From the IMG/VR virus record IMGVR_UViG_3300042389_001739, positions 1 through 64,000 of that record: a stretch of 64,000 nucleotides of DNA; one strand, written 5' to 3'. Of this stretch, positions 6,902 to 49,370 are shown one piece after another. This DNA is from a virus. The position numbers and the translations under genes were made by a program. Below the pieces are notes generated by a model. The model was not told where the DNA came from. It saw only the letters and a program-made list of their open reading frames with translations, and did no database searches. Position 1 is the stretch's first letter; every line of letters starts with the position of its first letter.

Positions 6902-7443
6902 TAGGGTGCTCCCCGGCGGCGTAAGCGCCGAAACGTTGGAGGTAAAAGCACAACAGGCGGTGCTTTTTTCGGTGGCAGGGGTGGAACAAAACTTGGATCG
7001 AAGCAGATAGGCTCTTCTTCAAATAGCTCCACATAAGCTTTTCGTGCAGGCACCCATTCGTCTTCATTATCCCAGCAACCATCGCTGCTGATTTTAATCG
7101 CATCGGGTGCGATTGCCAGCACTCGCAGCAGTGTAAGACAGACGGCCAAGTCGTATGGCTTTCGCGCTGTCTTGCAGTACAAATCTACTGGGGGCATCGA
7201 ACTAAGATAATCTTCAGGCCAGCGGAGCAATACAAAATCTTCGCAGCTTAATTTCTTTATTCCGTTAAAGCTGAGAATATCGAAGGCATATCTGGTCGGT
7301 TTATTAGAACCCCGGCTATCTCTCAGCTCAATTTCGTGCTTTTCGCGACAATATTTTTCAATTGCAAGTGTATTTAATTGGATAGCCGACCATTCTTTTG
7401 CCGTAAAATCTCTGGTTTGCGTGTAGTAATGTGTATACCCCAT
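6901..7443 (-). CDS. Conserved phage/MGE hypothetical protein (MGYTHY...CKTARKPYD...SSDG family)
   Basis: Recognisable motif set of a common uncharacterised family. Confidence 0.75.
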   Translation of the reverse strand: MGYTHYYTQTRDFTAKEWSAIQLNTLAIEKYCREKHEIELRDSRGSNKPTRYAFDILSFNGIKKLSCEDFVLLRWPEDYLSSMPPVDLYCKTARKPYDLAVCLTLLRVLAIAPDAIKISSDGCWDNEDEWVPARKAYVELFEEEPICFDPSFVPPLPPKKAPPVVLLPPTFRRLRRRGAP

Positions 7444-10381: not shown

Positions 10382-10625
10382 AAACCTGCACCACAGATAT
10401 CTCACTGTGATGCAGGTGACCCTGCCTTGCCCTGCCCTACCTTGCCCCGCCGCGCCTCGCCCCGCCAAGAGAAACCTGCACCACAGATATCTCACTGTGA
10501 TGCAGGTGACCCTGCCATGCCTGGCCCGGCCCCGCCACGCCTCGCCTTGCCCCGCCAGGAGAAACCTGCACCACAGGTATTTCACTGTGCTGCAGGTGAC
10601 CCTGCCATGCCTAGCCTTGCCATGC
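10382..10625 (-). ncRNA. Repeat array A: (GGY-NN)n tract + hairpin units, 90-nt period; putative guide-RNA array (VIPR-like)
   Basis: Constant AAACCTGCACCACAGATATCTCACTGTGATGCAGGTGACCCTGCC starts at 10382 and 10472; the copy at 10562 has three substitutions. Between them lie NN-RCC pentamer tracts (GGY-NN on minus): two full (10 GGY) and one partial (5 GGY). Confidence 0.85.
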
Positions 10626-10629
10626 TCTG

Positions 10630-11124
10630 TTAGTTTTTAGGTGGTTTAAAACATCCTACAGGTTTCAGTTTAGGCGGTGGTGCCAGATAGTCCGACTCTG
10701 TCGGATTCGAATGATGTTTAATTTCGCGTAACGATTTTTGCACCGCAACGAGCGACGCGCTGATTTTACGCGACTCAAGTTCATGTTGTCGCCGATCGAC
10801 TTCACCCAGCTGTGAAATGTCAACCTGATCCACGTGCCGTTTGCTGCGGCGGATCTTTTTTACACCCGTGCGAAATCTTTTAGCCTGGAATTCCACCGAT
10901 TCCGCGTCGGTCAAAACATAGACTGCACCTTTTACCGCACGTAAACTCCAACGCTTGCCTTGCGCCCAAAGTGCCTGCTCTAAAATTCCGGCTAACTGCA
11001 ACGCGACAAAATTCAAAGATTCAGGCGTAAAGTCTTCAACGCCAGCTATTTTGCTTACTTCGTCTGCAGGTATACAACTACCCTTTTCAAGGGTATCCAG
11101 AAATTTTAAATCGAAATTGGTCAT
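10630..11124 (-). CDS. Accessory protein of the RAMP/array locus (basic, helical; unknown function)
   Basis: ATGA-coupled (11121-11124) to the RAMP gene; stop codon abuts array A; basic stretch KRFRTGVKKIRRSKRH. Confidence 0.8.
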   Translation of the reverse strand: MTNFDLKFLDTLEKGSCIPADEVSKIAGVEDFTPESLNFVALQLAGILEQALWAQGKRWSLRAVKGAVYVLTDAESVEFQAKRFRTGVKKIRRSKRHVDQVDISQLGEVDRRQHELESRKISASLVAVQKSLREIKHHSNPTESDYLAPPPKLKPVGCFKPPKN

Positions 11125-11714
11125 GTAATCTCCTTAAAATCCGTAACCTCGAACAACCCAAATCGAGGGCGATAATCGCAAATGCCTACCGAACGGCCAG
11201 CAAGATGACAGATTCGTTCAAGATCGTCAACGTTGAAATCATAAAGATTAACTTCTATGTCTGCCGCCCACACATTAAAACGGGGACGATACCGCATAAT
11301 GCGCTTTGTCTGCACTCCAGCGCAGCGTAGATCCACGTATTTGTTGCCTGCATTCCAAAAGTCATCAATAGTTGCCTTCAAACCCACAGGGTGATCGTGA
11401 ATCAACAATGAGTCCTTTGTCACGATAACTCCAGCCAAGGCCTGCTTTTTCATCCGTAACTTAGTTGCCCCTGCGATTATCATTCCTTGTATGCAATCGG
11501 CAGTCAGTATTGGACGACGCTCCTTGTCATAGTAGAAGCCGTTGTACCAATCCAGTCTGGCAATCTCTATATAGTCTTCATCAGTCTTGTTTTTCTTTGA
11601 AGTGACTGCTTTTAACTGCTTACTTTCTTGGCTTAATGGATTAGCGGCACGTGAGGCGTGCATCAGTAGTGCACGCACCCCTTTAATAGAAAAACGAACG
11701 GAAGTTTCGGCCAT
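11121..11714 (-). CDS. Cas7/RAMP-fold RNA-binding protein (Vipr-like), 197 aa
   Basis: Start MAETSV at 11714 with AAGGA RBS. RAMP hallmarks: first strand VRFSIKGVRALLMH, ILTADCIQGMI (IPGSSLKG-equivalent), thumb IMRYRPRF, C-terminal Gly-rich loop AGRSVGICDYRPRFGLFEV. Confidence 0.8.
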   Translation of the reverse strand: MAETSVRFSIKGVRALLMHASRAANPLSQESKQLKAVTSKKNKTDEDYIEIARLDWYNGFYYDKERRPILTADCIQGMIIAGATKLRMKKQALAGVIVTKDSLLIHDHPVGLKATIDDFWNAGNKYVDLRCAGVQTKRIMRYRPRFNVWAADIEVNLYDFNVDDLERICHLAGRSVGICDYRPRFGLFEVTDFKEIT

Positions 11715-11843
11715 TAGCTGATTCCTTATTTTTGTTGCTTCCGCAGAAGCCGTTAAAATGTTTGTTTGTCCTGGCAGTAAAACTACTACCAGCACCTTAC
11801 ATTATCCGCCGCAACTGCATAGAAACCGCTGTTCTATTCAGTT

Positions 11844-12023
11844 AAACCTGCACCACAGATATCTCACTGTGATGCAGGTGACCCTGCCTTGCCCGGCCTT
11901 GCCATGCCGCGCCGTGCCTAGCCCCGCCAAGAGAAACCTGCACCACAGATATCTCACTGTGATGCAGGTGACCCTGCCCCGCCTGGCCCGACCTAGCCAT
12001 GCCTTACCATGCCCCGCCAAGCC
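11844..12023 (-). ncRNA. Repeat array B: two (GGY-NN)n tract + hairpin units, 90-nt period; putative guide-RNA array
   Basis: Same constant segment at 11844 and 11934; tracts at 11881-11928 (10 GGY) and 11971-12023 (11 GGY). Confidence 0.85.
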
Positions 12024-12034
12024 ATGTAATAAAC

Positions 12035-12063
12035 ATATTAACTCTTTAGTGGGACAAATACAA
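12035..12063 (-). promoter_or_regulatory. Sigma70-like promoter for array B and the RAMP operon
   Basis: Minus strand TTGTAT (12063-12058), 17-nt spacer, TAATAT (12040-12035); -10 ends 11 nt upstream of the first GGC. Confidence 0.6.
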
Positions 12064-34761: not shown

Positions 34762-35413
34762 TGTTACTCCTAGTGGGAATATAGTTCACAATCTCATCTA
34801 CAATCCGCTCTGGTTCAACCAGCGCGTTGTCTTTAACGCAGCAAATTCGCACCGATTTTACGGTGGGTTGATATTCTATCAGACGATCCCGGTAAAAAGC
34901 ATTCACCTTTTCCAGAAGCGTCCGATCACGCTCATGCACGTCCAGTTTGCCGTCACGTTTTGCAACATTTTTTATTGCAAAATCCACCGGCATATCCAGG
35001 TAAACTAAAAGATCCGGTACGGGCAAACCAAACGTACCGTGTTCCAGTTTATCCAGGTATTTCAATAACCGATCCTGTTCTGCTCCTTCCGTTTTTGCGG
35101 CCAGATAGGCCAGGTTTGAGGCGACATACCGGTCCACAATCGCGATCGACTGTCCGTCTGCCGCCGCCTGCAGCTGATGCTGATCGGAATCAAATCGATT
35201 GATTGCCCACAGGGTACTACAAAACTCGGGAGTAATCGCCTGATGATACTTGTTATCCAAAATACGGCGAATCAACTGACCGCTGGCTGATTGATATTCC
35301 GGATACTTGACTACATACACCGGTAAACTCATTCGCTGGCGCAAACGCCACAATAAACGGTTAGCCGCGGTGGTTTTACCAGAACCGTCAATTCCCTCCA
35401 GATTAATGATCAC
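34754..35413 (-). CDS. tmk: Thymidylate kinase
   Basis: IINLEGIDGSGKTT, VDRYVASNLAY, PDLLVYLD. Confidence 0.93.
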   Translation of the reverse strand: MIINLEGIDGSGKTTAANRLLWRLRQRMSLPVYVVKYPEYQSASGQLIRRILDNKYHQAITPEFCSTLWAINRFDSDQHQLQAAADGQSIAIVDRYVASNLAYLAAKTEGAEQDRLLKYLDKLEHGTFGLPVPDLLVYLDMPVDFAIKNVAKRDGKLDVHERDRTLLEKVNAFYRDRLIEYQPTVKSVRICCVKDNALVEPERIVDEIVNYIPTRSNNG

Positions 35414-38400
35414 GCTTTGCCTTTCCGCTTACGCCATAGCTCATAGGACTTGTCCTCCAGGTTTCGTTGTGGTCTGACTTTGGTTGCCGCCACGATCGAT
35501 CGTTGCGGCTTTGTTGGGGCATCTTTGCTGTACGTTACCACACAACCCTCCGCCCCGCCGTGTCCGGTCGGCAGGCCGCGTTCTACCGCCTCGGCATAAA
35601 CTAGCTTTTCGCCCCAATAGTTCATCACCTCGGCTTCGATACCAAGATAATACGGACCGTCTCCTGTCGGAATCCCCTCCAAAGTACTGGGGTAAATCGG
35701 CACGGCCTTCCGCATGTAAGTCGGCAAAACATATTCGCAGACGTGTTTAACGTACCTGTCCGGCACTTCCAATAAAATGGCGTCATGAATCTGCAGCACG
35801 ACGTTAAAGAGATTATGCCCCTTTTTAGCCTGGCGTAGCTTGTAATCATAAAGATAAGCCAACGCACGCGACACCGCACTGGCGATCATGGACTGAATCG
35901 GGAAGTTCATGGCTTGGCGCCCAAACTCCGCCCGCAGAGCCTGATCCCGACTGGAATCCGGAAACCGCCGGAAGCGGCCGTAGCAGTTACAAAGCCAGCG
36001 ACTTTTAACTTGTTCCTGCGTGTTTTCGTCCGTGTAGGTACCTGCGGCCCGGTCCTGACACTCCTGAAAGAAAGGTCGCAGTTTAGGATACATTTCGAAA
36101 ATAGCGTTGATCACGGCTTGCGCTTCATCAACAGAAATGTCAATTTTCTGCTCCTTTGCGGCCACGGCAATCGCCTTAGCCCCTCGCCCGTAGGCGATTC
36201 CGAAAATCACGGACTTGGCCACAATCCGGATATGCTTTTTGCCAATGGCTTCCAGCCCACTTTTGGTGGGCGGACACTGCAGTTTAAAAGCAAAAACCGC
36301 CACATTGCTGTGGATGTCGTAGTAATCCGGATGATCTTCCGGCAACTGATTCCGCTGCGCGTGCGCAATCATATTCGGATCACCCGACATTACCGCCATC
36401 CCGAACAGTTCGGCGCCGACATAGTCGGCTTCCACCAGCACATGTCCCGGTGACGCTTTAAGCACGCTTCTCAGACTATATTTGTAATGCTCGCCAAGCA
36501 ACCGCTTGTAGTCCGGATCGCGTTGCTTGGAGATATTCTGCAGATTCGGTCGAGCACTGGACCAACGGCCAGTTTCCTTAGTCTGATAAATGTGGGTTCG
36601 TACTTTACCGTCATCGCAAACCAGTGAAGCCAACCCATCCTCGTATTCCATGTAACCGTCTTCGTTGTACTTTGCCTCCTCGGTCTTGTCGTCACGGCTG
36701 GGCGGACGCAGTACTGTCTTTAATACCTGATCAAGAAACCGATAATCCCGCAGCATGTCGATCAGACGCGCCTGATGCTCGTGTTCGGCGTCTTGTGCCA
36801 GTAGCGACAGCGCCTGTTTATTGGTAGAAGGCGAGTGGTTGTACTCCTGCTGCTGTCGCTTAATCTCCAGCCAGGGTCGCGGTGGTTTGGAGGTGTCAAA
36901 AACCGGGGTCAGTTTAAGCGAAGTTGCCCCTGGTGGTCGAATCTTGACCTCTTTCCCGGTTTCCTTGTTAATCCGGCCGTTGAGTTTTTCTCCGAATAAA
37001 AACTCCCGAACGTGCTGTGTCGAACGCACGTTGAACTCTGGCCAGTTAATTTCCGCTTTAAGTCGATTTTCCAGGTCTGCCCGTGCGTCCATAAACCGGG
37101 CCGTAAGAAAATCCACGCGGGAGCGGTCGACCATGATCCCGGTGCGGTGAATTTCCAACACCGCCGGGGTAGCAATCTGAGATTCCCAAAAGGCCTCCCG
37201 GCAGTTATTACCTTCGTAATCTTCATCCAGCAACAAGTCGAATTTGTAGAACAACCGCAAGGTTACGTCCGCGTCGTACATACCGTACGGCAGAAGAATT
37301 TCGTCAGGGCACATGCCGTACCCTTCGAGATCGCTGCTGCTCAGACCCTGCTGGCGACAGTAATCAATCTTCCACTTATCCAGCTCCCGGTCATAACGCG
37401 GTGCAGTGGTGTAACGCATGGCAAGCGTTTCCAGATTGTACTTGGCCGTCTCCTCGATAGCATGTGCCATCAAACCAGTGTCAGCACCGCCCTCGTATTT
37501 GGTGCGATACCAGGCGGGAACAACTTCACCCGCTTTGAAACCATCCTCCGCATACAACTTATGCAGCTTGGTGCCAGGCACCAGCGTGTAGTCGTAGAGC
37601 GGTGCCATGAAACATTCCTGCAGGTCGATGCCATAATCAACCAGCCACTCCAAGTCCGCGTTAAAGAAGTGCCCAATCACGCGTTTGCGGCGAAATTCAA
37701 CAGCACCGTTTGCATGCTCGTAACGGCCGCCCTTGAAAAAAACGTTAAGGAGTTTAATCGTTTCCTGCAAAATACCGCGTGCATTGGTTTCCTGCGGTGT
37801 GCCGCAAAAACCAAGCGTTACGTCACCCCCGGCGTCATGCAGTTTGATCCCGATCGCATGTTTTGGTCGCCAGGCAAACTGAATTGTGCGCATGTAGGTG
37901 TCGTGGTTGACCGGATGCTGACCGTGCCACTCCGCATCCACCGCAATCACATCGTCAGACTTTTCAGGATCCTGCTCGATGTTTACCAGCAGATCAAACA
38001 ACTGTGCGTGATTATCGACCACTACGTGATTGACCGTTTCGGTTTCGCCTAAATCTGCGCCTCGCAGCAAAGCCGCAAACCGGGCTAAACCACTTTCCAG
38101 CTGACGGAGTGCGGATTGATCACGGATGACCTGTTTGGGATGGACCACGGTAATGACTTTGGCTTCCTGCCAGCTGGTTTCAGCCAGTTCCGCAGTGTAC
38201 GCCGTGTTATACCGAAAAGTACCAACTTGACCCAGCATATCCGTAACGCTGGCTTGCGGACCAAGTATGGCTTTACTGGCATCTGTGCCCAGACAGAGAA
38301 TGTACTTGGGCTGTACGATTTTAATTTCCTGCATCAACAGGTGCATGCCGTCGTTGACCCAGGAAGCTTTTAACGTTGTCTTGAAGTTTGGGGGCTTAAA

Positions 38401-38976
38401 CTTGACCAGGTGTGTCAGGTAAAAGTCATCCAGCCGCTCAATCTTCAACCGCTGCATTAAATCGAACAGGAGCTCGCCGTCTGCGTCGCTGAGGCAGGCT
38501 TTATACTCCAGTTCCGTATCCCAGGGGTTTTTATTGATAATCATCACGCGTGCGGGGCGAGGTCCCGCGATGTCCAAGTGTTTAAGCGATTGCCCTCGCA
38601 AGTGACCCGGTAAAAACTTTGCGATTTTTTCCTGATGCGGTCCGACTTCCACCGGCATGGAAAAGTCGACCGTCCGCAATGCCCGCTGAATCAGGCGCTG
38701 CAAATCTTCGCTGTACTCCAGCTGCCGCACCTTTTTATCCTGCGCGTTTTTAACCTCTACAATTTTGCTCTTAGTGTCACCCAGCGCGTTGACGTGCGAA
38801 ACAAATGACGAATTGGGGGGCAGTACCGGCAGTCCAGGAGCATCCAGCGGAAAGATTGCGTCGCCCGTATGCATTGCCGCAATACGGGCCGCCTGGCGCT
38901 GCTCTAGCAGCAGCGTATTCTTTACAGGCGGTAAACTACCGTCCCGCATTCCTTTCAATTTACGTGGCGGAATCAT
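35410..38976 (-). CDS. polA: Family A DNA polymerase with N-terminal uracil-DNA-glycosylase-like domain and 3'-5' exonuclease
   Basis: UDG-like YLTHLVKFKPP...EIKIVQPKYILCLG...VVHP; exonuclease AVDAE, FNADL, YGMYD; polymerase TGRWSSARPNLQN, ADYVGAEL, AKSVIFGIAYG, NFPIQS, QIHDA. Confidence 0.95.
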   Translation of the reverse strand: MIPPRKLKGMRDGSLPPVKNTLLLEQRQAARIAAMHTGDAIFPLDAPGLPVLPPNSSFVSHVNALGDTKSKIVEVKNAQDKKVRQLEYSEDLQRLIQRALRTVDFSMPVEVGPHQEKIAKFLPGHLRGQSLKHLDIAGPRPARVMIINKNPWDTELEYKACLSDADGELLFDLMQRLKIERLDDFYLTHLVKFKPPNFKTTLKASWVNDGMHLLMQEIKIVQPKYILCLGTDASKAILGPQASVTDMLGQVGTFRYNTAYTAELAETSWQEAKVITVVHPKQVIRDQSALRQLESGLARFAALLRGADLGETETVNHVVVDNHAQLFDLLVNIEQDPEKSDDVIAVDAEWHGQHPVNHDTYMRTIQFAWRPKHAIGIKLHDAGGDVTLGFCGTPQETNARGILQETIKLLNVFFKGGRYEHANGAVEFRRKRVIGHFFNADLEWLVDYGIDLQECFMAPLYDYTLVPGTKLHKLYAEDGFKAGEVVPAWYRTKYEGGADTGLMAHAIEETAKYNLETLAMRYTTAPRYDRELDKWKIDYCRQQGLSSSDLEGYGMCPDEILLPYGMYDADVTLRLFYKFDLLLDEDYEGNNCREAFWESQIATPAVLEIHRTGIMVDRSRVDFLTARFMDARADLENRLKAEINWPEFNVRSTQHVREFLFGEKLNGRINKETGKEVKIRPPGATSLKLTPVFDTSKPPRPWLEIKRQQQEYNHSPSTNKQALSLLAQDAEHEHQARLIDMLRDYRFLDQVLKTVLRPPSRDDKTEEAKYNEDGYMEYEDGLASLVCDDGKVRTHIYQTKETGRWSSARPNLQNISKQRDPDYKRLLGEHYKYSLRSVLKASPGHVLVEADYVGAELFGMAVMSGDPNMIAHAQRNQLPEDHPDYYDIHSNVAVFAFKLQCPPTKSGLEAIGKKHIRIVAKSVIFGIAYGRGAKAIAVAAKEQKIDISVDEAQAVINAIFEMYPKLRPFFQECQDRAAGTYTDENTQEQVKSRWLCNCYGRFRRFPDSSRDQALRAEFGRQAMNFPIQSMIASAVSRALAYLYDYKLRQAKKGHNLFNVVLQIHDAILLEVPDRYVKHVCEYVLPTYMRKAVPIYPSTLEGIPTGDGPYYLGIEAEVMNYWGEKLVYAEAVERGLPTGHGGAEGCVVTYSKDAPTKPQRSIVAATKVRPQRNLEDKSYELWRKRKGKA

Positions 38977-40071: not shown

Positions 40072-41725
40072 GGAATTCTAGTTCTTCATCCGAATCCTCA
40101 TCAAACATACCGGTTTGATTAACATTTACTGCGATATTGGGCACTGCAGCGCCGACCAAGTTTGCGGTGGCTTTATCCACAATATTTCCACGGCTATCGA
40201 TGTGGTAATTATCGGGGGATAATACCAAGTTAAACTCACCGTCCACTTTGATAATCGTAGGCGGCAATCGGCGATAGCGACGATGCTTGGTACACATAAT
40301 CTGGCCCAAGCCTTCCAGGTTTAAGTTACCAACCACAAACGCAAAGCTAAGATTTTCAGCAAATGACTTGCTACCTTTCGCGTCGGTGTGATGGAGTTTG
40401 GCCGTCACGCTTTGTTGTGAATTGGCTTCACCGCTTAACTGATGCATCAGCCAGGCGTGACAGTTAAACGGTTTACAAATTTGTTTGACACACAGCTCGC
40501 CTGCCTGCTGGTAGGACCGATGTGTTTCCATGGGATTTTTTGTATTTTTAAGTTTTGAGTCGTTATCGATCATCAGGCCCAAGTAATCGATAATTACGTT
40601 CTTGATATAGTACTCCGGACCCCGTTGCTGTAGTTCTTGTTTAATCCGCTGGACGATCTCGGCCACGCCGCCGTTACCCGCCGTGGGATGTAGCGGATCG
40701 GCCCCAGAAAAATCCAAACAAAGTGTATGCGCGTTGACCCAGTGCTCGATTTCCGCGACTCGTACCCGTTCGGGTTTAAAAACCCCGTCACGAATTTCTG
40801 TGGTAAACAACCGCTGCTCGTAACTCAGCGGATCGTTTTCGTTATTGTTCAGGGCATCAATCCCGTCTAATCCCATTCGCTCCAGGCTGTAACGACTAAC
40901 TCGCGAAGAATACATGACCAACCGGTGTAGAATTTCTGGTGCCAGTGGTGCCTCGTACGTAACCAGTACGGACAACCCTTTGCGCTGATCCCAGTCCTCT
41001 GCCAGTGTGTCTTCGTAACATTGCTGTGCCGCAGTGGCCCAAAGCATTACCGCTACGGTAGTTTTACAGGTACCGTAAGGTGCCATGAAGCCGTAAGCCT
41101 CACCGGCTACCGTACCTCCACCCAAATAATTGTCCAGAAAACCCAATCCCGTGGAGCGAATCAGCATGGGATTGGTACGAGACCAATCCGGTTTCATCGT
41201 CAACGTTGGTCCGGTTTTCTCCTGCAGCAGGCCGACCAGATCCAACTTAACCTGATGTTGCTGCAACAGAAATGGCAAGTCGTCCAGCGAGGTCTGACGA
41301 ATATTCTGTTCAAGTGCCTGCCGCTCATGCTGCAGCATCAGCATGCGACCGACTTTTAGCCCAAACCGATGCATTTTTTGGCCGGTTGCCGGTGACGTAG
41401 CAAACAGCTCGGGGTCATAAGCATATTCAAAGAAGTCTTCCAGCTCTGCCCGATCCTCTACAGGAATCAGTTCAGGGTCGTCTTCAAAATAACTGGCGAT
41501 TTCCGTCCAGAGTTCAGGCTGTGCCGGTATGCTCTGATTCTCTTCGTACAAATTAATCAGTGCACGGAACAGCAATCGATTACTGTCCGTAGTGAAATGT
41601 TCAACTGTCAATTTTCCCCAGTATTCCTGGAAAAGTGCTTCATTGTGAAGCAGGATTGCCAGAAATAAACGTAAATGGGCAGTTGACAGTCTGGTTGCCG
41701 ACTGTCTCATACTAATTCCTTTCAC
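40064..41725 (-). CDS. dnaB: Replicative DNA helicase (DnaB/SF4)
   Basis: STGLGFLDNYLGGG, MAPYGTCKT, TYE, IIDYLGLM, HQL, KHR. Confidence 0.88.
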   Translation of the reverse strand: MKGISMRQSATRLSTAHLRLFLAILLHNEALFQEYWGKLTVEHFTTDSNRLLFRALINLYEENQSIPAQPELWTEIASYFEDDPELIPVEDRAELEDFFEYAYDPELFATSPATGQKMHRFGLKVGRMLMLQHERQALEQNIRQTSLDDLPFLLQQHQVKLDLVGLLQEKTGPTLTMKPDWSRTNPMLIRSTGLGFLDNYLGGGTVAGEAYGFMAPYGTCKTTVAVMLWATAAQQCYEDTLAEDWDQRKGLSVLVTYEAPLAPEILHRLVMYSSRVSRYSLERMGLDGIDALNNNENDPLSYEQRLFTTEIRDGVFKPERVRVAEIEHWVNAHTLCLDFSGADPLHPTAGNGGVAEIVQRIKQELQQRGPEYYIKNVIIDYLGLMIDNDSKLKNTKNPMETHRSYQQAGELCVKQICKPFNCHAWLMHQLSGEANSQQSVTAKLHHTDAKGSKSFAENLSFAFVVGNLNLEGLGQIMCTKHRRYRRLPPTIIKVDGEFNLVLSPDNYHIDSRGNIVDKATANLVGAAVPNIAVNVNQTGMFDEDSDEELEFHE

Positions 41726-42507
41726 ACGCCACTTACTGCAAGGATGGACTCCTCGAGAAGTCTGTTCGCCGCCGCACGAAACCCTGGTGGAATAACGCTA
41801 CCCCAGGCCTCGTCATAGAGATCCGGAAATAGTGTGTAATCCATCGCCGCCAGGAACTTGTACCGCTCGCCAAGCTTTTCCAGCTTGGCGCAGTGCAAAT
41901 CGTTTTTGTCGGTTGCCTGAATTTTCTCGCTTGTCGATATTGCCAGGCAATAGCGAAAAAGCGGTGATAACTCCAGTCGGTCATCCGCAATGGCGTAATA
42001 TACCGACAAAGAGAGCGTATGACCAGCCCCCTTTTGCAGCCGCACAACCGCCGAGCGCGCACGCTGGCTTTCGGCGATGTACTGCTGCCGCAATTCAGTT
42101 TTGCTCGCATTTACATGCTCACGCACCAGATCGAACCAGACCGAACTGGCTAACTGTTGCACCGTGGGTACGGTTAAAGCGGAACCGCGCAAAACTCGAA
42201 ACAGCAGCCGCAGGTAATACGCAGGCGCAATGGATTGCGCGCTTTGAATCTTGGCGTAAGCTTTGATCCAGGCGTTCTGCCGTTCCGGTTCTTCTGGCGT
42301 GTTAAATTGCTTTAATCCATCGAAATTGGGCGAAGGCGTGTAATGAGATACCCCGCCATGGCGAAACTGCTCTAAAACTCGCCTTTCTAAAATGTAGGTG
42401 TTTTTAAACCCTTGAATTTCCGGCGTCAGTTGGTGTGATCCGCGCAGCGATCGTTGGCCGGGCTTGGAATAAAGTCCCGGGATCGGTTGGCGTCTGAAGT
42501 TTCGCAT
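41722..42507 (-). CDS. Hypothetical protein in the replication module
   Basis: 261-aa ORF between the two helicases. Confidence 0.7.
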   Translation of the reverse strand: MRNFRRQPIPGLYSKPGQRSLRGSHQLTPEIQGFKNTYILERRVLEQFRHGGVSHYTPSPNFDGLKQFNTPEEPERQNAWIKAYAKIQSAQSIAPAYYLRLLFRVLRGSALTVPTVQQLASSVWFDLVREHVNASKTELRQQYIAESQRARSAVVRLQKGAGHTLSLSVYYAIADDRLELSPLFRYCLAISTSEKIQATDKNDLHCAKLEKLGERYKFLAAMDYTLFPDLYDEAWGSVIPPGFRAAANRLLEESILAVSGV

Positions 42508-42514
42508 AAGTCCC

Positions 42515-44011
42515 TCACATCAATTGACTATCCAGTGCGGTTGTCGGCGGCTTGATCTGCTCAAACCCCATGGCAACATAAGTCGATTCACGACCTTTTG
42601 CCTGACTGGCCATTTTTGGATTGAATTGATCCCGATAGTCATGGACGATGCCGTATTCTTTCCCTTCCGCCACGCGAGAAACCCGGCCAGGAATTTGGAT
42701 ATCACCAATAACGCTTGAACCTCCGGCGGCCCTGATCAACACAGTCAGTTGGTTAAAACTGACACCCACATTCCAAACTGTCGTACAGATTACTTTTTTC
42801 AATCTACCTTTTTCAAAATCTTGAGTCAGCTGAATTCGCCGATCGACATCCATCAGCGGTTCATCCTGACTGCAACAACCACGATTTACATAGTCTTGAC
42901 GAGTCTTTGGTGTCAGCCCGCTTTCCCTATATACAAGTGTAAACTCTGGAAGCCGCTTTTTTAACTGCATTGCGTGCTCCAGCGTATCGACAGTAATCAA
43001 CACTTGTGTATTTCGATCATAAAGCCGCGCATCCCGTGCAATCGTGTCGTTACGGAAATCATTACACCAGATACCGTAGCGTTTCTTTTCAATGTCTTCC
43101 CGTGACTCGCACGGATCGTAATCGCTTCGCACGTTGGACCAGATGACGTGTATGGGTACCACCAACTTGGCCTGCTGTGCCTGTTGATAACTCACCGAAA
43201 AAATAATCGGACCAAAGATTCCGTGCATACGGAGATCTCTGCCGTCAAACCGCTTGTCGTGACTGGCTGACAACCCAAAGTTTCGACTGTTCTGCCACCG
43301 TACCAGCTGCGCGGCAGTCCGATCGGTAGCCAATTCCTGTATTTCGTCGCCAATCATGATGTCGGCAGTAGCCGGAGAGTGGTGGGCAGAATCTGCCGTG
43401 TAACACATCACTCGCCTGTTTAATTCTTTTTTAGATCCGCCCACGATTCCAACATCACCTACCATCTGCACTAACTCCGGATAAATCCGATCTCGCAGCA
43501 CAGACACCCGGCGAGTAATCACATCAATCTTGGCACGCGGAAACAACGAAGCAATCAAGCCGATCATAAAAGATTTGCCAAAACCAGGCGCGCAATCAAA
43601 ACGGCCGCAGCGATGCGTCAACACTTTCTGCAAAAATTCAGGCTGACCTTCTCGCAGCTGGTAACCTTGAATGTTCTCCCAATGTGGTTCAAATTTTTTA
43701 GCGTCCCCTGGCATCTGATCTTTCAGGCGGACTTCGTAACCATGCTGCCGCAGCTCGTCGCGAATCAGCTTCCAAAAGCCAAACGTAGTCGTCAACCGCT
43801 GATGGCGGTCTGCCTCAAATAACACATGGTTGATGAACTCGATCGGAGACAAATTCAGCCGTTTTCGCTGTTTGGCTTCATACCCGTAGAAAATCTTCTT
43901 TTCTTGAAATGTTAAAACCGGCTGCAGAATCCGAACTATGCGGTCTGTCGTGGGTTCCAGGCAAAGCATGTTGCCATGCTTCAGCATTGTTACAACAGGC
44001 TTTGTGCTCAT
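42515..44011 (-). CDS. SF2 DExD/H helicase (UvsW-like)
   Basis: LREGQ, CAPGFGKS, GDEIQE, GLSAS, QIPGRVSR. Confidence 0.9.
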   Translation of the reverse strand: MSTKPVVTMLKHGNMLCLEPTTDRIVRILQPVLTFQEKKIFYGYEAKQRKRLNLSPIEFINHVLFEADRHQRLTTTFGFWKLIRDELRQHGYEVRLKDQMPGDAKKFEPHWENIQGYQLREGQPEFLQKVLTHRCGRFDCAPGFGKSFMIGLIASLFPRAKIDVITRRVSVLRDRIYPELVQMVGDVGIVGGSKKELNRRVMCYTADSAHHSPATADIMIGDEIQELATDRTAAQLVRWQNSRNFGLSASHDKRFDGRDLRMHGIFGPIIFSVSYQQAQQAKLVVPIHVIWSNVRSDYDPCESREDIEKKRYGIWCNDFRNDTIARDARLYDRNTQVLITVDTLEHAMQLKKRLPEFTLVYRESGLTPKTRQDYVNRGCCSQDEPLMDVDRRIQLTQDFEKGRLKKVICTTVWNVGVSFNQLTVLIRAAGGSSVIGDIQIPGRVSRVAEGKEYGIVHDYRDQFNPKMASQAKGRESTYVAMGFEQIKPPTTALDSQLM

Positions 44012-44121
44012 TTTTACCTTCCAATTGCTTTATTTTAGATGTTGAGTTACAATATGCATCGGTTGAGCGAAACGCCCTACCGCTGCACGATTATACCGTC
44101 CAGGTTTCGCCGCCTGGACGG

Positions 44122-44601
44122 CTATTCTTTAAATTTTTGACGGCGCAAATGAAATTCAACTACCTGATAATGCCCGTACTGCCCCGGCTGCCAGGGTGAT
44201 AATCCTTTGTATTTTCCTGCAATCTGTAATAACGACCAAAAATCAGCATCGTCAATTTCACTGGGCACAATGCAATTCAGCCCAATGGTTTGCCCGGTTT
44301 TAAGTGATTCATGCACACTCCACCGTTCTTTACCGTTATTGGTTTTCGGATAATAATGGCGGGCGAAGCAGTTTGGATGCAACTTGGCATCAATCTCGAT
44401 ATCCCAGCAAATTTTTTTAACTGTTTCCTGATGTCTGCCCAGCATATCCGCAGCAAGCACCATGTTGCTGTAGTGCCACGTAGGTAAAAACAAAATCTTG
44501 TTATCCAGGCTGCGCTGAAACGTATATCGGCCGTTTGGACCTTTTTGATTGCCCAGACTCGGATTTGTAAACTGGATTTTTACCGTCAGCTCACGCATCA
44601 T
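44122..44601 (-). CDS. Second small RAMP/Cas7-like protein
   Basis: ELTVKIQFTNPSLG first strand; HESLKTGQTI; Gly-rich loop AGKYKGLSPWQPGQYGHYQV. Confidence 0.6.
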   Translation of the reverse strand: MMRELTVKIQFTNPSLGNQKGPNGRYTFQRSLDNKILFLPTWHYSNMVLAADMLGRHQETVKKICWDIEIDAKLHPNCFARHYYPKTNNGKERWSVHESLKTGQTIGLNCIVPSEIDDADFWSLLQIAGKYKGLSPWQPGQYGHYQVVEFHLRRQKFKE

Positions 44602-45404
44602 CAGCTCCTGAATAACTCGGCATAGCGTTGCCTGACTTTGCGGCTCTGAAAAAACAGCGCCGGATCAAACTGAACGCTCTGGTTGTTCAGTTGTTGTAAC
44701 CAATTATAGGCCAGAAAATTTAATAATTTCCTGCACGCCTGCAGCGCATACCGAGAATTTGGCTTAGACCTGCCAAGCTCTTCCATCAACCAAGTCGTGG
44801 GTTCCATCTCCGAAAGAATGTTCATCAGCAACCGGTTACGTTTATGCTGTCCATCCGTGATGGATTTCAGTTGATTCGGTAAAACTTTGAAATAGCTGTG
44901 CAGCCGGTTGACGCGATCCGGCCGTTCCGGGTTGATATACCAGCGCGGATCACCAATTTCTGCCAGTAACTCAATCCCCAGCTCAATGGAGCGAATTCCA
45001 CTGAATTTCAGGTAACGATGCAGACAATGTTGACTGTAAAGTGCATGCAGATTATCGGTATAGCCCTTTGTTTTAAACGTATGTAACAAAAGAAAATGGT
45101 TATACACCTGACTGTCCATTCGATGCCAACACTGGGGCAAGTTGTCCTGCACCTGCAACAAAGTCAGCCGCTGTAAAATTGCGGCAGGATCGGCTTCGTT
45201 CAGCGGTTTACCAACTAATACCTGGGCCTGAATATCGTGTTGCTTGATGGCTGAATACAGGTCAAGCAACAAACGGTAGTTACAAGGTGTGCCTAACACG
45301 CGGTAAATTCCAGGCGAAAACGACGACGTAATCGCCCGAGTCAAGCCCTGCGAAGAATAGCTGTAAACTGAATCATTTGCAGCGTGCAGGCAAATTTGCA
45401 TCAT
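44601..45404 (-). CDS. IS110/Nop-domain-like protein (degenerate)
   Basis: FSGIRSIELGIELLAEIGDPRW...RLHSYF and ACRKLLNFLAYNW resemble the IS110 (Transposase_20)/Nop C-terminal region. Confidence 0.55.
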   Translation of the reverse strand: MMQICLHAANDSVYSYSSQGLTRAITSSFSPGIYRVLGTPCNYRLLLDLYSAIKQHDIQAQVLVGKPLNEADPAAILQRLTLLQVQDNLPQCWHRMDSQVYNHFLLLHTFKTKGYTDNLHALYSQHCLHRYLKFSGIRSIELGIELLAEIGDPRWYINPERPDRVNRLHSYFKVLPNQLKSITDGQHKRNRLLMNILSEMEPTTWLMEELGRSKPNSRYALQACRKLLNFLAYNWLQQLNNQSVQFDPALFFQSRKVRQRYAELFRS

Positions 45405-47500
45405 TTGCGGATTTCTATGCTTTGTTCGAACACCTCTTGAAGATCATGCACATGCGTGATGATCACCATCTGTTGCTGTGTTCCCATTTTACTGGCCAAC
45501 TGCTGCAACGCGCTATGGAAGTATGTCACGTTATCGGCATCCAGGCCACTGGCGGGCTCGTCCAGGAACAGCATGCCGACGTCATGCCCGAACACACGAC
45601 CTAACGCGGTACGGAAAGCAACCGCCAGGATAACCTTCTGTCCACCTGAGAGTTGACTGGCCTTAACGGAGTATTGCCCGGGAAATGTGACCTGGAAAGT
45701 CAAATCCTGGTCTGCCTGCACGGTGAAGGGAGTACCGAACAATTCCAGATTCTCATTAACCCCTTGTACCAACAAGCCAAGATTAGCCTGGGCTACGGCT
45801 TTTGGTAAATTGCTCCAGTGAAATAAATTACCGGCTTCTTCCACAATTTTAAGCAACTCCTGAGTTTTTCTGTGTTTCTCCAGTCGCTTGCGCAACGTGT
45901 GCAAGTTGGCTTCAATACGCTGTTTTGTCTGCTCCAGTACCCGCAGTGCACCATCCAGCTGGTTAACGGCCGCCACGGCATCGTAATGAAGCTTTAAGCT
46001 GGAGGTGGCGCTTTCCAGCTCTCTTTTTGTCGGTCGCTGTTTAATTTTCTCCTGCTGTTTCTCTAGTTCAACGGTATTGTGCTGCAGGTCACTGGTGGTT
46101 TTGGCTTTTGTTTTTTCCAGCTGTGCAATTTCCGTGTTCACGGTGGCCAGCTCTTGTGTCAACTGCTGACGATTGTTTAGAAATTCTCGGGCTTTTGTGT
46201 CGGCACCAGGATCTTCTGCACCAACCAACACATCCAGCTGCGCCCGTATTTCGTTAATCCCGGCAGTCATACGATTGACTTGCGTGTCGTAAGCCGCCTT
46301 TTCTTTGTCGTAGCTTTGCGAAAATTGCACTCGCTGCTTCAGTGCATCGAACTCCTGCTGGGTGGTTTCAATTTCCTTGAGCAGTTTCTTTCTGTGTTTT
46401 TCCGAAATTTCCTGCTGACAATACCGGCAAACCGAATCAGCCAGACTTTCGGGCTCGGCAGCTTCCAGGATAGCGCGTAGTTCGCTTAACCGCTGTGCCG
46501 CGGTCTCCCGCTCATCAGCTTTAAGATAAAGTTGCGAATCCATTGCAGGCGGGAGTAACGACTGAACGCAGTCCATCTTTTTCTGCATACTGTCAGTCAG
46601 TTCATTGATCTGGGCCTTGGCTCTACGGTAAGCCGCCACGGCATTGATCTTGGCATGCGCCAGTTCAACCTTGGGTAAAGTGCGTTCTAGTTGTGCCTGG
46701 ATCTGCCCGCAACGCCCGTACAAACTTAACCCGGAAGTTTCAAGCTGATCCGCCTGAGACTTTAACAACTTAACCTTGGTTTGCTGTGCTTCAATCCCCT
46801 GCTCGGCGTCGCAGGCGACTTCTTCACGGCGGACAATCTTTTGTAAATTTACTACCGTATCGGGTGTTAAAATCTGCTTTTTAGACTCTTCTGCCTGCTC
46901 GCTTGTTTGCCGTATTTCTGTGTTAGTCTTTTCCAGGTCGTCGGTTAACTCAAGCGAGTTATCAACGATTTCAACGCCTTTTTGCTTGTTGACGTAATCG
47001 TTGCACACTTTATGGATTTGAGCCGCAATCTCTACACCACACAAATATTGGAACGTCTTCGCTCGTTCACTATCCCGTGCGTCGATAAAGTCAAACATTT
47101 TCCACTGGTCGACAAAGACGTATTTATCGATTACGGTTTTTGAAATGTTCAGCTCGGCGACAACGGCATCGTTAACGTCGTTTGCCTTTTCATAAGTTTT
47201 TCCTCCAATCTTGAACTCGTTGCGGTTCGGTCTTAACCAGCGTGTGAGTGTAAACTCCTGGTTACGATGTATGCCCGTTAGACGGATATAACTTTCACCG
47301 CTCGAGCCGTTGGTGATGATATCGGCTTTCGTGCCGCTAAACCGCCCGAAGTCGTTTGTGAGTGCCGCGTAAATACTGTTGACTAGCGTTGACTTACCGG
47401 CACCATTCGCGCCCGTCAAACCAATAAGCCCGCTCGCCAGTTCGACTACGAGTTGTCTATGGGGACCGATATTTTGAAGTTCGACTGTTCTGATTTGCAT
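45401..47500 (-). CDS. sbcC: SbcC/Rad50-like ATPase
   Basis: GANGAGKST, CRYC zinc hook, LSGGQ, FLDEP, IITH. Confidence 0.93.
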   Translation of the reverse strand: MQIRTVELQNIGPHRQLVVELASGLIGLTGANGAGKSTLVNSIYAALTNDFGRFSGTKADIITNGSSGESYIRLTGIHRNQEFTLTRWLRPNRNEFKIGGKTYEKANDVNDAVVAELNISKTVIDKYVFVDQWKMFDFIDARDSERAKTFQYLCGVEIAAQIHKVCNDYVNKQKGVEIVDNSLELTDDLEKTNTEIRQTSEQAEESKKQILTPDTVVNLQKIVRREEVACDAEQGIEAQQTKVKLLKSQADQLETSGLSLYGRCGQIQAQLERTLPKVELAHAKINAVAAYRRAKAQINELTDSMQKKMDCVQSLLPPAMDSQLYLKADERETAAQRLSELRAILEAAEPESLADSVCRYCQQEISEKHRKKLLKEIETTQQEFDALKQRVQFSQSYDKEKAAYDTQVNRMTAGINEIRAQLDVLVGAEDPGADTKAREFLNNRQQLTQELATVNTEIAQLEKTKAKTTSDLQHNTVELEKQQEKIKQRPTKRELESATSSLKLHYDAVAAVNQLDGALRVLEQTKQRIEANLHTLRKRLEKHRKTQELLKIVEEAGNLFHWSNLPKAVAQANLGLLVQGVNENLELFGTPFTVQADQDLTFQVTFPGQYSVKASQLSGGQKVILAVAFRTALGRVFGHDVGMLFLDEPASGLDADNVTYFHSALQQLASKMGTQQQMVIITHVHDLQEVFEQSIEIRK

Positions 47501-48213
47501 TTTTTATACCTTAGAATGACTTCCCACTCCGCAACAATCGGGCGGGGAAATGAAAAGTTTGTAGGTTTTTTGCCCAGACTGGGATGATACTTTACAGTAT
47601 CCACCGGAGCATCAATTGGCACGATACGCGGATCTTCGATCGATACCATCTGCTGACCCGGCCGTACTATCAATTCGTAGGGCCGATCTTGGTTTTGCTT
47701 GGTCCAGCTCGAAATAGCCCGCCTGGCATCTTCCAGCAACCAACGCGTCGGATGCCCGGTCCAGTTTGTCCAGGTAAACCGACAACCCTGCCGAAGTAAC
47801 ACGCCTTCCCCGCAAATATCGTCTGGCTCAAAGCTGGGTAGCCGAAACCAGACGAGCTCTGTAGCGTTGGTCAGTGCCGTGTGGGTTACCATGTAAGCGT
47901 GATTTTTACTGGGCAGATGCTCCAGAAAGTGCCACGATAAGTAAACATTGCCGGGCGGTAGCTGTTTAAGCTGGCGTTCATCACTGCAGTCGATAAGTTC
48001 AAAGCAGTACCCTTTATCCGTCACGATGCGTCGATAATTTTCTGCTTGGGGTCTTTCAACCCCCAGGCAGCGGTGCGGTAACCAAAGATCGTTTGACCGC
48101 TCCGGCAAGGTCAGGGCGAGACCGCGTTTACGAAACTCGTCGATGGCGTTGCCGTGTTTTGTGCCTAAGTCCACGACGTCATAGGTTACGGTTTTGCGTT
48201 TTCCTCTACCCAT
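47446..48213 (-). CDS. Class I SAM-dependent methyltransferase-like protein
   Basis: VVDLGTKHG, SWHFLEHLP. Confidence 0.65.
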   Translation of the reverse strand: MGRGKRKTVTYDVVDLGTKHGNAIDEFRKRGLALTLPERSNDLWLPHRCLGVERPQAENYRRIVTDKGYCFELIDCSDERQLKQLPPGNVYLSWHFLEHLPSKNHAYMVTHTALTNATELVWFRLPSFEPDDICGEGVLLRQGCRFTWTNWTGHPTRWLLEDARRAISSWTKQNQDRPYELIVRPGQQMVSIEDPRIVPIDAPVDTVKYHPSLGKKPTNFSFPRPIVAEWEVILRYKKCKSEQSNFKISVPIDNS

Positions 48214-49370
48214 CGTCTCAGCGTTTGCTCCGGATCCGGGTTTTGCAAAAAAGCTACTGCCAATTTATTTGTAGCAGGTTGTACCACAAACGAATCAAGA
48301 CAGTCGAGTAGACCAACACGTTGATCGGTATCATAGCTTCCTTCCTCGGATAATTCATCCACCTGTTTTGCGCGTTTACACTTAAAGAACAGATGAGCCT
48401 GCTCGTGAAAAGTACGTTTCCAGTCTTCTACGATACTTTCTTCACCTTCCCGGTAAGTCAACTCAATTAAGGGCATGTGGAGTTCGGGAGGTAAATTCAC
48501 AGAATACGCGGAGGCTTTCTGTAACTCCGCTTCCGTGTTTGTCCGCAGCCGAAGCTGTTTTTGTAAATCCAGCTCATCAAGGGCGGCAAAATCCAGTTCA
48601 GCAACCGTAGGCACAGTTAACCGAATACATTGCCGCGAAAATAACTGATGGCTTCTCACGGTAAACTCGTGGTTATCCCCCAGAGTCAGCAACAAACAAA
48701 AATGGTTTTCAGGTTCGGCGATTGATCGCATATGTGTGCTGCCGGGAGACAACACCATAAAAGGAATTTCGTCTGTTGCCTGCAACACTTTCGATTCGTG
48801 AAAATCACCAGTAATCAAAATTTTTACATTATCCGGTACGTCGGAAAACGCGGCCTGTGGTCGAGCAAGCTCGCCCATAAAGTCCTGCCACACCTGATGG
48901 CAAACTAAAACATCAGCTGACTTGGCCAAGTCAGACTGTAAGAATACCTGAAAATTTTCCTGATTTTGATAATCACAGCCTACCAGATTCCAGCCGTTGG
49001 CTGTGGTATGTCGGCTTTCGTGCAGCCAGTGAGTCTCAGGCACCAGCTGCATCCAGGGCACGTTTTGATATTCGTGCTGACCTTGGTTGTATAGCACATC
49101 GATGCCGTGCTGCTGCAGCTGCTGGACTCCTTCCACCAGTTTCTGCACCGGCAACGACACATTACTCTGCTTGTCCAGAATATCGCCAGCCAGGATCACA
49201 CCGTGTGCCTTAGCCGCGATGGCCGCCGCCACAATCTGCTGCCAGGCAAAAAAAGAATCGCCCTCTATCGGTCGATGCCGCCAAACCCGCGTGGATAAAT
49301 GCAAGTCGCTGGCTACAATGTAGCGGCGACGATTTTCCGGAGAAACAAAAGAACCAGTCTTTATAGCCAT
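48186..49370 (-). CDS. sbcD: SbcD/Mre11-like metallophosphoesterase nuclease
   Basis: SDLH, AGDILD, GQHE, CHQ, GDFH, PGS. Confidence 0.9.
   Translation of the reverse strand: MAIKTGSFVSPENRRRYIVASDLHLSTRVWRHRPIEGDSFFAWQQIVAAAIAAKAHGVILAGDILDKQSNVSLPVQKLVEGVQQLQQHGIDVLYNQGQHEYQNVPWMQLVPETHWLHESRHTTANGWNLVGCDYQNQENFQVFLQSDLAKSADVLVCHQVWQDFMGELARPQAAFSDVPDNVKILITGDFHESKVLQATDEIPFMVLSPGSTHMRSIAEPENHFCLLLTLGDNHEFTVRSHQLFSRQCIRLTVPTVAELDFAALDELDLQKQLRLRTNTEAELQKASAYSVNLPPELHMPLIELTYREGEESIVEDWKRTFHEQAHLFFKCKRAKQVDELSEEGSYDTDQRVGLLDCLDSFVVQPATNKLAVAFLQNPDPEQTLRRWVEENAKP

Follow-up and report, generated by a model that had tools for sequence, protein, structure and literature searches.

The subject of this report is ORF267, a minus-strand gene for a protein of 267 amino acids, named TasL here, in a 64,000-nucleotide stretch of viral DNA (the window), which makes up positions 1-64,000 of the 79.7-kb IMG/VR record IMGVR_UViG_3300042389_001739, a record whose completeness is estimated at 38%. 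An earlier note on this DNA had pointed out two segments of one open reading frame (ORF) that resemble conserved motifs of the Transposase_20 domain of IS110 transposases, a region related to the Nop RNA-binding domain, and both segments do lie within ORF267 (Table 1). The sequence of ORF267 was found without differences on contigs from four other lake-water runs and therefore it is not an assembly artefact. The gene stands in a long minus-strand operon in which SbcD, a 255-amino-acid ORF, SbcC, ORF267, ORF159, a superfamily 2 (SF2) helicase, a 261-amino-acid ORF and a DnaB-like helicase follow one another, and after DnaB the operon continues with a primase, a fusion of PolA with a uracil-DNA glycosylase (UDG), thymidylate kinase and a RecA-like gene. 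The PolA gene (35410-38976) is a single ORF of 1188 amino acids in which a family A DNA polymerase carries an N-terminal domain of the UDG superfamily. Both ends of ORF267 overlap its neighbours. Its start codon shares an ATGA with the stop codon of the SbcC-like gene, and its own TGA stop (44601-44603), with an AGGAG at 44604-44608, has one A in common with the ORF159 ATG (44599-44601), exactly as the earlier note had it when it described a stop overlapping the start of a RAMP-like gene. Through these overlaps the translation of ORF267 is coupled with that of SbcC on the upstream side and with that of the 159-amino-acid RAMP-fold gene on the downstream side.

A word-index homologue search with ORF267 returned the protein itself as its only match, tblastn against phage GenBank records gave no match for ORF267 nor for its relative P0038, and PDB sequence and profile searches with ORF267 gave nothing relevant. 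An exhaustive HMMER search, on the other hand, gave 308 relatives at E ≤ 1e-3, most of them 270-325 amino acids long, and a family alignment of 130 relatives was used for the structural model, the family profile and the column counts given below. With this alignment AlphaFold2 (AF2) gave a model with a predicted local distance difference test score (pLDDT) of 93.4 and a predicted template modelling score (pTM) of 0.91. The AF2 model made from the single sequence (pLDDT 37) was useless, and the ESM Atlas model of ORF267 was poor and the structural search from it uninformative. When the alignment-based model was searched with Foldseek, the first rank was taken by the TIGR-TasR structure 9MTY at a probability of 0.99-1.0, followed by the IS110 structures IS621 and ISCro4 at 0.85-0.93, while Nop5 (3id6) appeared at a probability of only 0.10 and PF01798 was not matched. 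VIA, an aligner independent of Foldseek, gave the same order, with a Z score of 12.2 to TasR 9MTY over 225 residues at a root-mean-square deviation of 4.7, 8.4 to TasH (21kl) over residues 101-264 of ORF267 and 7.9 to ISCro4. In BFVD no match was found at E ≤ 0.001 and the best one, at a probability of 0.63, was labelled 'Transposase'.

The family profile points in the same direction as the fold. The NCBIfam model NF052498 (TIGR_Tas_endo, 'TIGR-Tas system RNA-guided endonuclease') weakly matches 61 of the 130 relatives, with a best E of 6e-7, whereas the IS110 model NF033542 matches only three of them; SpTasH of Salicola phage CGphi29, the positive control, scored 118.9 bits against NF052498, and the matches of the relatives are best taken as remote homology only. 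PF02371 matches a single relative (E 0.028), phrog_4285, annotated as 'transposase', matches 15, and ORF267 itself is matched by none of PF02371, PF01548 and NF033542. With the sequence of TaTasR, obtained through its exact array motif, hhalign aligned residues 115-178 of the family profile to residues 157-215 of TaTasR (E 5.5e-4), pairing H126 with the His of 'HP', D152 with the Asp of 'GD' and L168 and G173 with 'LW.YAG'. The alignments of the family to SpTasH alone (E 0.02) and to a TasH profile (E 0.009) were weak, at a probability below 5%, and fell on the correct segment. Among the seed sequences of the Tas HMM (Data S1 of PMC12045711) is a protein with HPxY, DPRWF, Y.GLLP, FL.R and ...WL..FDP, and these are the hallmark motifs of the ORF267 family. 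From the fold and profile matches we conclude that, within the Nop/IS110 superfamily, ORF267 belongs to the Tas (TIGR-associated) branch as one of its compact members and lies closer to TasR than to IS110. The resemblance to Transposase_20 and Nop that was first seen by eye is thus real; the nearest relatives, however, are Tas proteins rather than IS110, and a whole degenerate RuvC-like domain is present in addition.

That domain forms the N-terminal part of the model and is followed by a Nop/Tas domain. The 113 N-terminal residues alone gave Z scores of 4-6 to RuvX/YqgF, poxvirus resolvase and the RuvC domains of TnpB/Cas12. The most conserved residues of the family (H126, F134, D152-P153-R154-W155, P162, L168, G173, W235, F246 and F252) are all in the Nop/Tas domain. 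P153 and R154 are invariant, and H126, F134, D152, W155, P162, L168 and the consensus G173, which is Lys in the window copy, are conserved in at least 90% of the sequences. The first of the two segments aligns to 'HPVY..LISLIGDIDRF..LWAYAG' of TaTasR, and the pattern of the second is found also in Tas proteins of Table S1 of PMC12045711. From the last helix of the RuvC-like domain to H126 there are about 12 residues, where TaTasR has a coiled coil of about 50 residues, so that residues ~106-156 of TaTasR have no counterpart in ORF267 and the RuvC-like domain is joined directly to the Nop/Tas domain.

Table 1. Features of the TasL locus (window coordinates)
Feature	Position	Strand	Basis
ORF267 (TasL), compact TasR-like protein, 267 aa	44601..45404	-	ORF; 308 relatives; AF2 model; best fold match TasR 9MTY
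RuvC/RNase H-like N-domain, aa 1-113, predicted catalytically dead	45066..45404	-	AF2 strand/helix order; Z 4-6; no conserved acidic column
Nop/Tas C-terminal RNA-binding-type domain, aa 114-267	44604..45065	-	TasH 21kl Z 8.4; hhalign to TaTasR 157-215
First motif, aa 126-174, HP...LLxxIxDPRW...R.xRL..YxxL	44883..45029	-	best-conserved part of the family
Second motif, aa 220-235, A..RK...F...W helix	44700..44747	-	W235 in 129/129 sequences with a residue there
ATGA overlap, SbcC-like stop/ORF267 start	45401..45404	-	sequence
AGGAG + TGATG, ORF267 stop/ORF159 start overlap	44599..44608	-	sequence
ORF159, well-conserved mini RAMP-fold protein, downstream partner gene, 159 aa	44122..44601	-	fold match of ESM Atlas model
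Conserved hairpin directly after ORF159 stop	44096..44121		covariation; terminator-like on + strand
CGTGCAGCGG box (conserved CGTGYAGCGG) + second predicted hairpin	44040..44089	-	cross-locus comparison
SbcD-like gene	48186-49370	-	family search
255-aa ORF	47446-48213	-	operon gene; no family match; missing in about half of related loci
SbcC/Rad50-like ATPase, upstream neighbour of ORF267	45401..47500	-	PF02463, phrog_77
SF2 helicase, XPB-like, downstream neighbour	42515..44011	-	phrog_16; XPBII E 4e-5 (PDB sequence search)
261-aa ORF	41722-42507	-	conserved operon gene; no family match

Four acidic residues are highly conserved in active TasR, whose cleavage is abolished by D11A. When the corresponding positions were examined in the ORF267 family, the position in β1 ('CLHTD' as against 'ILAVD11' of TaTasR) was Asp in 69 of 121 relatives and Ala (Ala9) in ORF267, the Asp/Glu that starts the helix after the last strand was Val (Val100) in ORF267, and the position mapped to the strand-end Glu was Gly in 120 of the 130 relatives. 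None of the acidic columns of the N-domain reaches 80% in the family alignment. The DEDD residues of IS110 were not found in the N-domain of ORF267, with positions inferred from strand order, and no conserved Ser follows the 'GL.P' motif, the family positions 177-186 being variable or gapped. On sequence grounds the RuvC-like domain of ORF267 is thus predicted to lack the acidic catalytic set. This bears on whether TasL could be an active Holliday junction resolvase of the RuvC type that belongs to the recombination module, as its RuvC-like fold and its location beside SbcCD, the helicase and the RecA-like gene might lead one to expect. RuvC and RuvX resolvases have conserved acidic metal-binding residues, and with Ala and Val in ORF267 at both of the partly conserved acidic positions and no conserved acidic set in the family we consider an active resolvase very unlikely.

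The conservation of the locus was examined in 25 related IMG/VR loci that were retrieved through the better-conserved ORF159 family, and thus the TasL loci were sampled via ORF159 and not independently; a locus search with the relatives P0001 and P0008 gave no locus. The order of the ten genes is identical in all 25, and in 24 of them the pair is kept and the TasL gene ends at or overlaps the start of ORF159. In the remaining locus, L013, SbcC abuts ORF159 (6981-7001) and the TasL gene is absent, while ORF159 and the RNA-like element downstream of it are kept, so that it looks like a natural deletion variant. The earlier note had named two outcomes that would speak against it, a lack of structural similarity to Nop/IS110 domains and a gene pair that is not conserved; both were checked, and neither was seen. 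The operon SbcD-(orf255)-SbcC-TasL-miniRAMP-SF2 helicase-orf261-DnaB-primase-PolA is kept in a clade of uncultured lake and marine phages of ~180-210 kb. One copy of TasL was found in each of four near-complete relatives (179-208 kb). No other gene of the block has diverged as far as TasL, which shows 21-45% identity to the window copy compared to 43-69% for ORF159 and the helicase; in close pairs its ratio of nonsynonymous to synonymous substitution rates (dN/dS) is 0.03-0.10. These values show it to be a single-copy gene under purifying selection. They are hard to reconcile with a decaying transposase gene left behind by an IS110 insertion sequence, which the resemblance of the motifs to Transposase_20 and the phrog_4285 matches of the relatives would otherwise bring to mind. 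A remnant of this kind would not be expected to show such a dN/dS and to occur once, at the same syntenic place, in every genome that was checked; besides, both ends of the gene overlap its neighbours, so that neither element ends nor a bridge RNA could be accommodated, and PF02371 has no match in the record even at E 10. We regard this explanation as hardly credible, and the claim that ORF267 is not an intact insertion sequence was borne out by the lack of DEDD residues, of a conserved Ser and of ends, together with its single syntenic copy.

The downstream partner, ORF159, was found with 43 clusters at 50-70% identity and has no Pfam match and no PDB sequence match. The ESM Atlas model of exactly this sequence (pTM 0.79) aligns to the RAMPs cluster PF03787 over 157 residues with template modelling (TM) scores of 0.73/0.58, which upholds the label 'RAMP-like' that this neighbour had been given. 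The C-terminal G-loop of ORF159 could be aligned by hhalign (E 0.006) to the Vipr-like protein of the VIPR locus of the same phage, although BLAST of ORF159 against this Vipr gave nothing. A RAMP fold with the core of an RNA recognition motif (RRM) and a C-terminal G-loop is thus supported for ORF159 at the level of the predicted fold. Like Vipr of the VIPR systems (bioRxiv 10.64898/2026.04.26.720920), ORF159 is a small phage-encoded RAMP-fold protein with a single RRM. Unlike in VIPR, a GGY-NN vrRNA was not found beside it, the 5-nt periodicity being absent in and after ORF159, and the gene belongs to a replication operon and not to a two-gene vipr-vap locus. A prediction of the complex of TasL with ORF159 returned a score of 0.00, that is, no answer, and is evidence neither way.

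Directly after ORF159 lies a conserved structured element (44040-44121). Its first hairpin shows compensatory changes in nine of 12 pairs among eight loci, is present in a single copy in the record and reads as an intrinsic terminator on the plus (antisense) strand. For the second hairpin a consensus fold was not recovered. In five near relatives a further copy of the CGTGYAGCGG box stands 22-75 nt upstream of the DnaB start, and the window has one with a single mismatch at ~41769-41790, also upstream of DnaB; L004 and L007 have, besides, a second, lineage-specific segment that is repeated upstream of DnaB. The element could serve both helicase genes as a shared leader or operator, or it could encode an antisense small RNA. 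As a ligand of TasL it is a candidate only.

An array of the TIGR type was not found by TRF or by self-match scans for periods of 24-69 in the 79.7-kb record and of 24-99 in G004, a complete 204.8-kb relative with terminal repeats; neither shows dual-repeat periodicity, in agreement with the earlier note, which had seen no array. The array scans, which could miss stem-loop units without repeats, returned only collagen-like or other coding repeats and 5-nt-periodic VIPR arrays. A TIGR-like signal of period 36 at 79405-79722 of the record (minus strand, beyond the window) was rejected as a Gly-X-Y coding repeat of a collagen-like protein, probably a fibre, and a second such signal at 101162-101475 of G004 is likewise a coding repeat. 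Hairpin scans of the record showed no hairpin cluster, and no large-loop hairpin in or beside the ORF267 gene. In G004 four clusters of three hairpins were found, none of them near TasL, compared to 0-2 in shuffled sequences. Rfam had no match in the window nor around the ORF267 gene. The VIPR locus of the window has arrays at 10382-10616 and 11844-12021, which are built of 90-nt units, each a hairpin with runs of 5-nt GGY-NN repeats, and which flank small genes; similar 5-nt-periodic arrays are found in G004 at ~168.0-169.3 kb and 197.6-198.0 kb.

These scans have to be set against the idea that TasL works in an RNA-guided Tas system whose guides escaped detection, either as stem-loop tigRNAs hidden within genes or in other parts of the ~200-kb genome or as RNAs borrowed from the VIPR arrays (10382-12063). 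Xu et al. (bioRxiv 10.64898/2026.09.09.750476) leave this possibility open for the array-less branch of TasRs, stem-loop tigRNAs have no conserved repeats and may sit inside genes, the record is only 38% complete, and VIPR arrays are present in the same phage and in G004. However, neither dual-repeat periodicity nor, in the record, a hairpin cluster or a large-loop hairpin at the gene was seen, the dual-spacer targeting of TasR requires the coiled-coil dimer that is absent in TasL, and the VIPR locus is 33 kb away and has its own Vipr and accessory gene. Guides of this kind therefore seem improbable to us.

The explanation that we prefer, to which we give a probability of about one half, is that TasL is a non-cutting nucleic-acid-binding adaptor which, probably in company with the mini-RAMP, holds either a structured RNA or an RNA:DNA hybrid, and which serves replication or recombination of the phage or their regulation. 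According to this explanation TasL would bind nucleic acid and would not cut DNA. Its most conserved surface, HP...DPRW...R.xRL..YLGL, would hold the structured RNA or the hybrid, as we infer from the alignment of this motif to the TasR segment that contains R198, a residue which Xu et al. report to stabilise a box D uracil. The co-translated mini-RAMP would probably share in holding the RNA or hybrid, and the degenerate RuvC-like domain would act as scaffolding that faces DNA or the neighbouring enzymes. TasL would have a fixed role in phage replication, recombination or their regulation and would not carry out array-programmed interference. There is a precedent in dead TasR and TasA, which are RNA-guided repressors.

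It may also be that no RNA is involved and that the TasR-like fold was exapted as a protein-only recogniser of DNA structures such as hairpins, forks, junctions and ends, where it would aid or restrain SbcCD and the SF2 helicase, with ORF159 as an independent replication protein. TasL has an unchanged place between SbcC and the helicase in 24 of the 25 loci, its start is coupled with the stop codon of SbcC, RuvC/RNase H folds are typical of junction binders (the N-domain gave Z scores of 4.5-5.7 to RuvX, YqgF and poxvirus resolvase), there is neither an array nor a coiled coil, and L013 keeps ORF159 in the absence of TasL, all of which fit such a role. On the other hand, conservation peaks in the motif that is homologous to the RNA-gripping Nop/Tas part and not in the RuvC-like domain, and the fold of the co-translated neighbour is that of an RNA-binding RAMP. 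We hold this RNA-free role to be possible, though rather unlikely.

Several points weigh against the adaptor explanation. ORF267 alone matches no Pfam, PHROG or NCBIfam model, so the similarity to Tas proteins is visible only at the level of profile and fold, and the relatives score far below the 100-bit cut-off of NF052498 (P0038 scores 15 bits). The catalytic site was mapped by the order of secondary structures and the position of motifs and not by superposing structures residue by residue. Since TasL has no coiled coil, the part of TasR on which the guide-target duplex is carried and through which the dimer forms, guiding in the manner of TasR cannot be assumed. Because L013 retains ORF159 and the downstream element without TasL, neither of these depends on TasL, and since the whole ten-gene operon is syntenic the adjacency of TasL and the RAMP gene is by itself weak evidence for a complex. 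Finally, no RNA partner of TasL was identified, and none of the RNA-seq runs among the listed sequencing runs carries the phage.

When TasL is compared to known systems it resembles TaTasR (PDB 9MTY; Faure et al. 2025, PMC12045711) in domain order and in the HP...GD...YAG and A.RK..F...W motifs, whereas the four conserved acidic residues, DNA cutting, the coiled-coil dimer and flanking TIGR arrays of 36-nt units belong to TaTasR only. It also resembles the dead stem-loop TasRs PateTasR and CsTasR, which bind and do not cut and in which RuvC persists as a scaffold that has no catalytic residues; these differ from TasL in that the coiled-coil dimer is kept, that they have stem-loop tigRNA arrays and that they are found mostly in candidate phyla radiation (CPR) bacteria. 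The bridge-RNA recombinases IS110/IS621 (PDB 8WT6, 8WT9, 9T56) share with ORF267 a RuvC-like and a Nop-related domain (Z 7.9), but the DEDD set, the catalytic Ser, the coiled coil, the bridge RNA and mobility are all absent in ORF267. The closest likeness in description is to a divergent clade of compact, array-less TasRs without a coiled coil, in dense viral genomes, described by Xu et al. (bioRxiv 10.64898/2026.09.09.750476), who ask whether array-less TasRs use an alternative guide source. As that clade is described, TasL consists of RuvC and Nop parts, is compact, has no coiled-coil dimerisation domain and no detectable TIGR array, and its gene lies in a densely packed viral genome without intergenic room. 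The available text of the preprint gives no function for the clade and says nothing of a RAMP neighbour or of an SbcCD-helicase operon as its setting.

Both the relationship of the folds and the occurrence of a compact TasR branch without arrays are already published, and the constant pairing with a RAMP-fold gene within an SbcCD-helicase-replisome operon was not found in the literature searched. The locus therefore gives a concrete setting to a question left open by the TIGR-Tas field, namely the role of the TasR branch that has neither array nor coiled coil. Here TasL is a core gene under selection, with one copy per genome, in the SbcCD-helicase-replisome operon of a phage; its nuclease residues are predicted to be lost and it is paired with a co-translated minimal RAMP-fold protein, which would imply either a role in handling a fixed RNA or R-loops or a full exaptation for DNA metabolism of two folds that hold guide RNAs. 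A more specific and decidedly speculative form of the first, which we think improbable as it stands, is that TasL and the mini-RAMP make up a two-protein, array-less ribonucleoprotein (RNP) with one hard-wired RNA, either the element at 44040-44121 with its CGUGYAGCGG box or an origin or primer transcript, which would recognise leaders of replication genes or R-loops and thereby control replication or recombination. Such an RNP, if real, would be the first hybrid effector of Tas and RAMP and would explain where array-less TasRs obtain their RNA. As a minor observation outside the operon, the left end of the window has a tandem coding repeat of 12/24 nt (CTGCCGCAGCCC) at 300-364.

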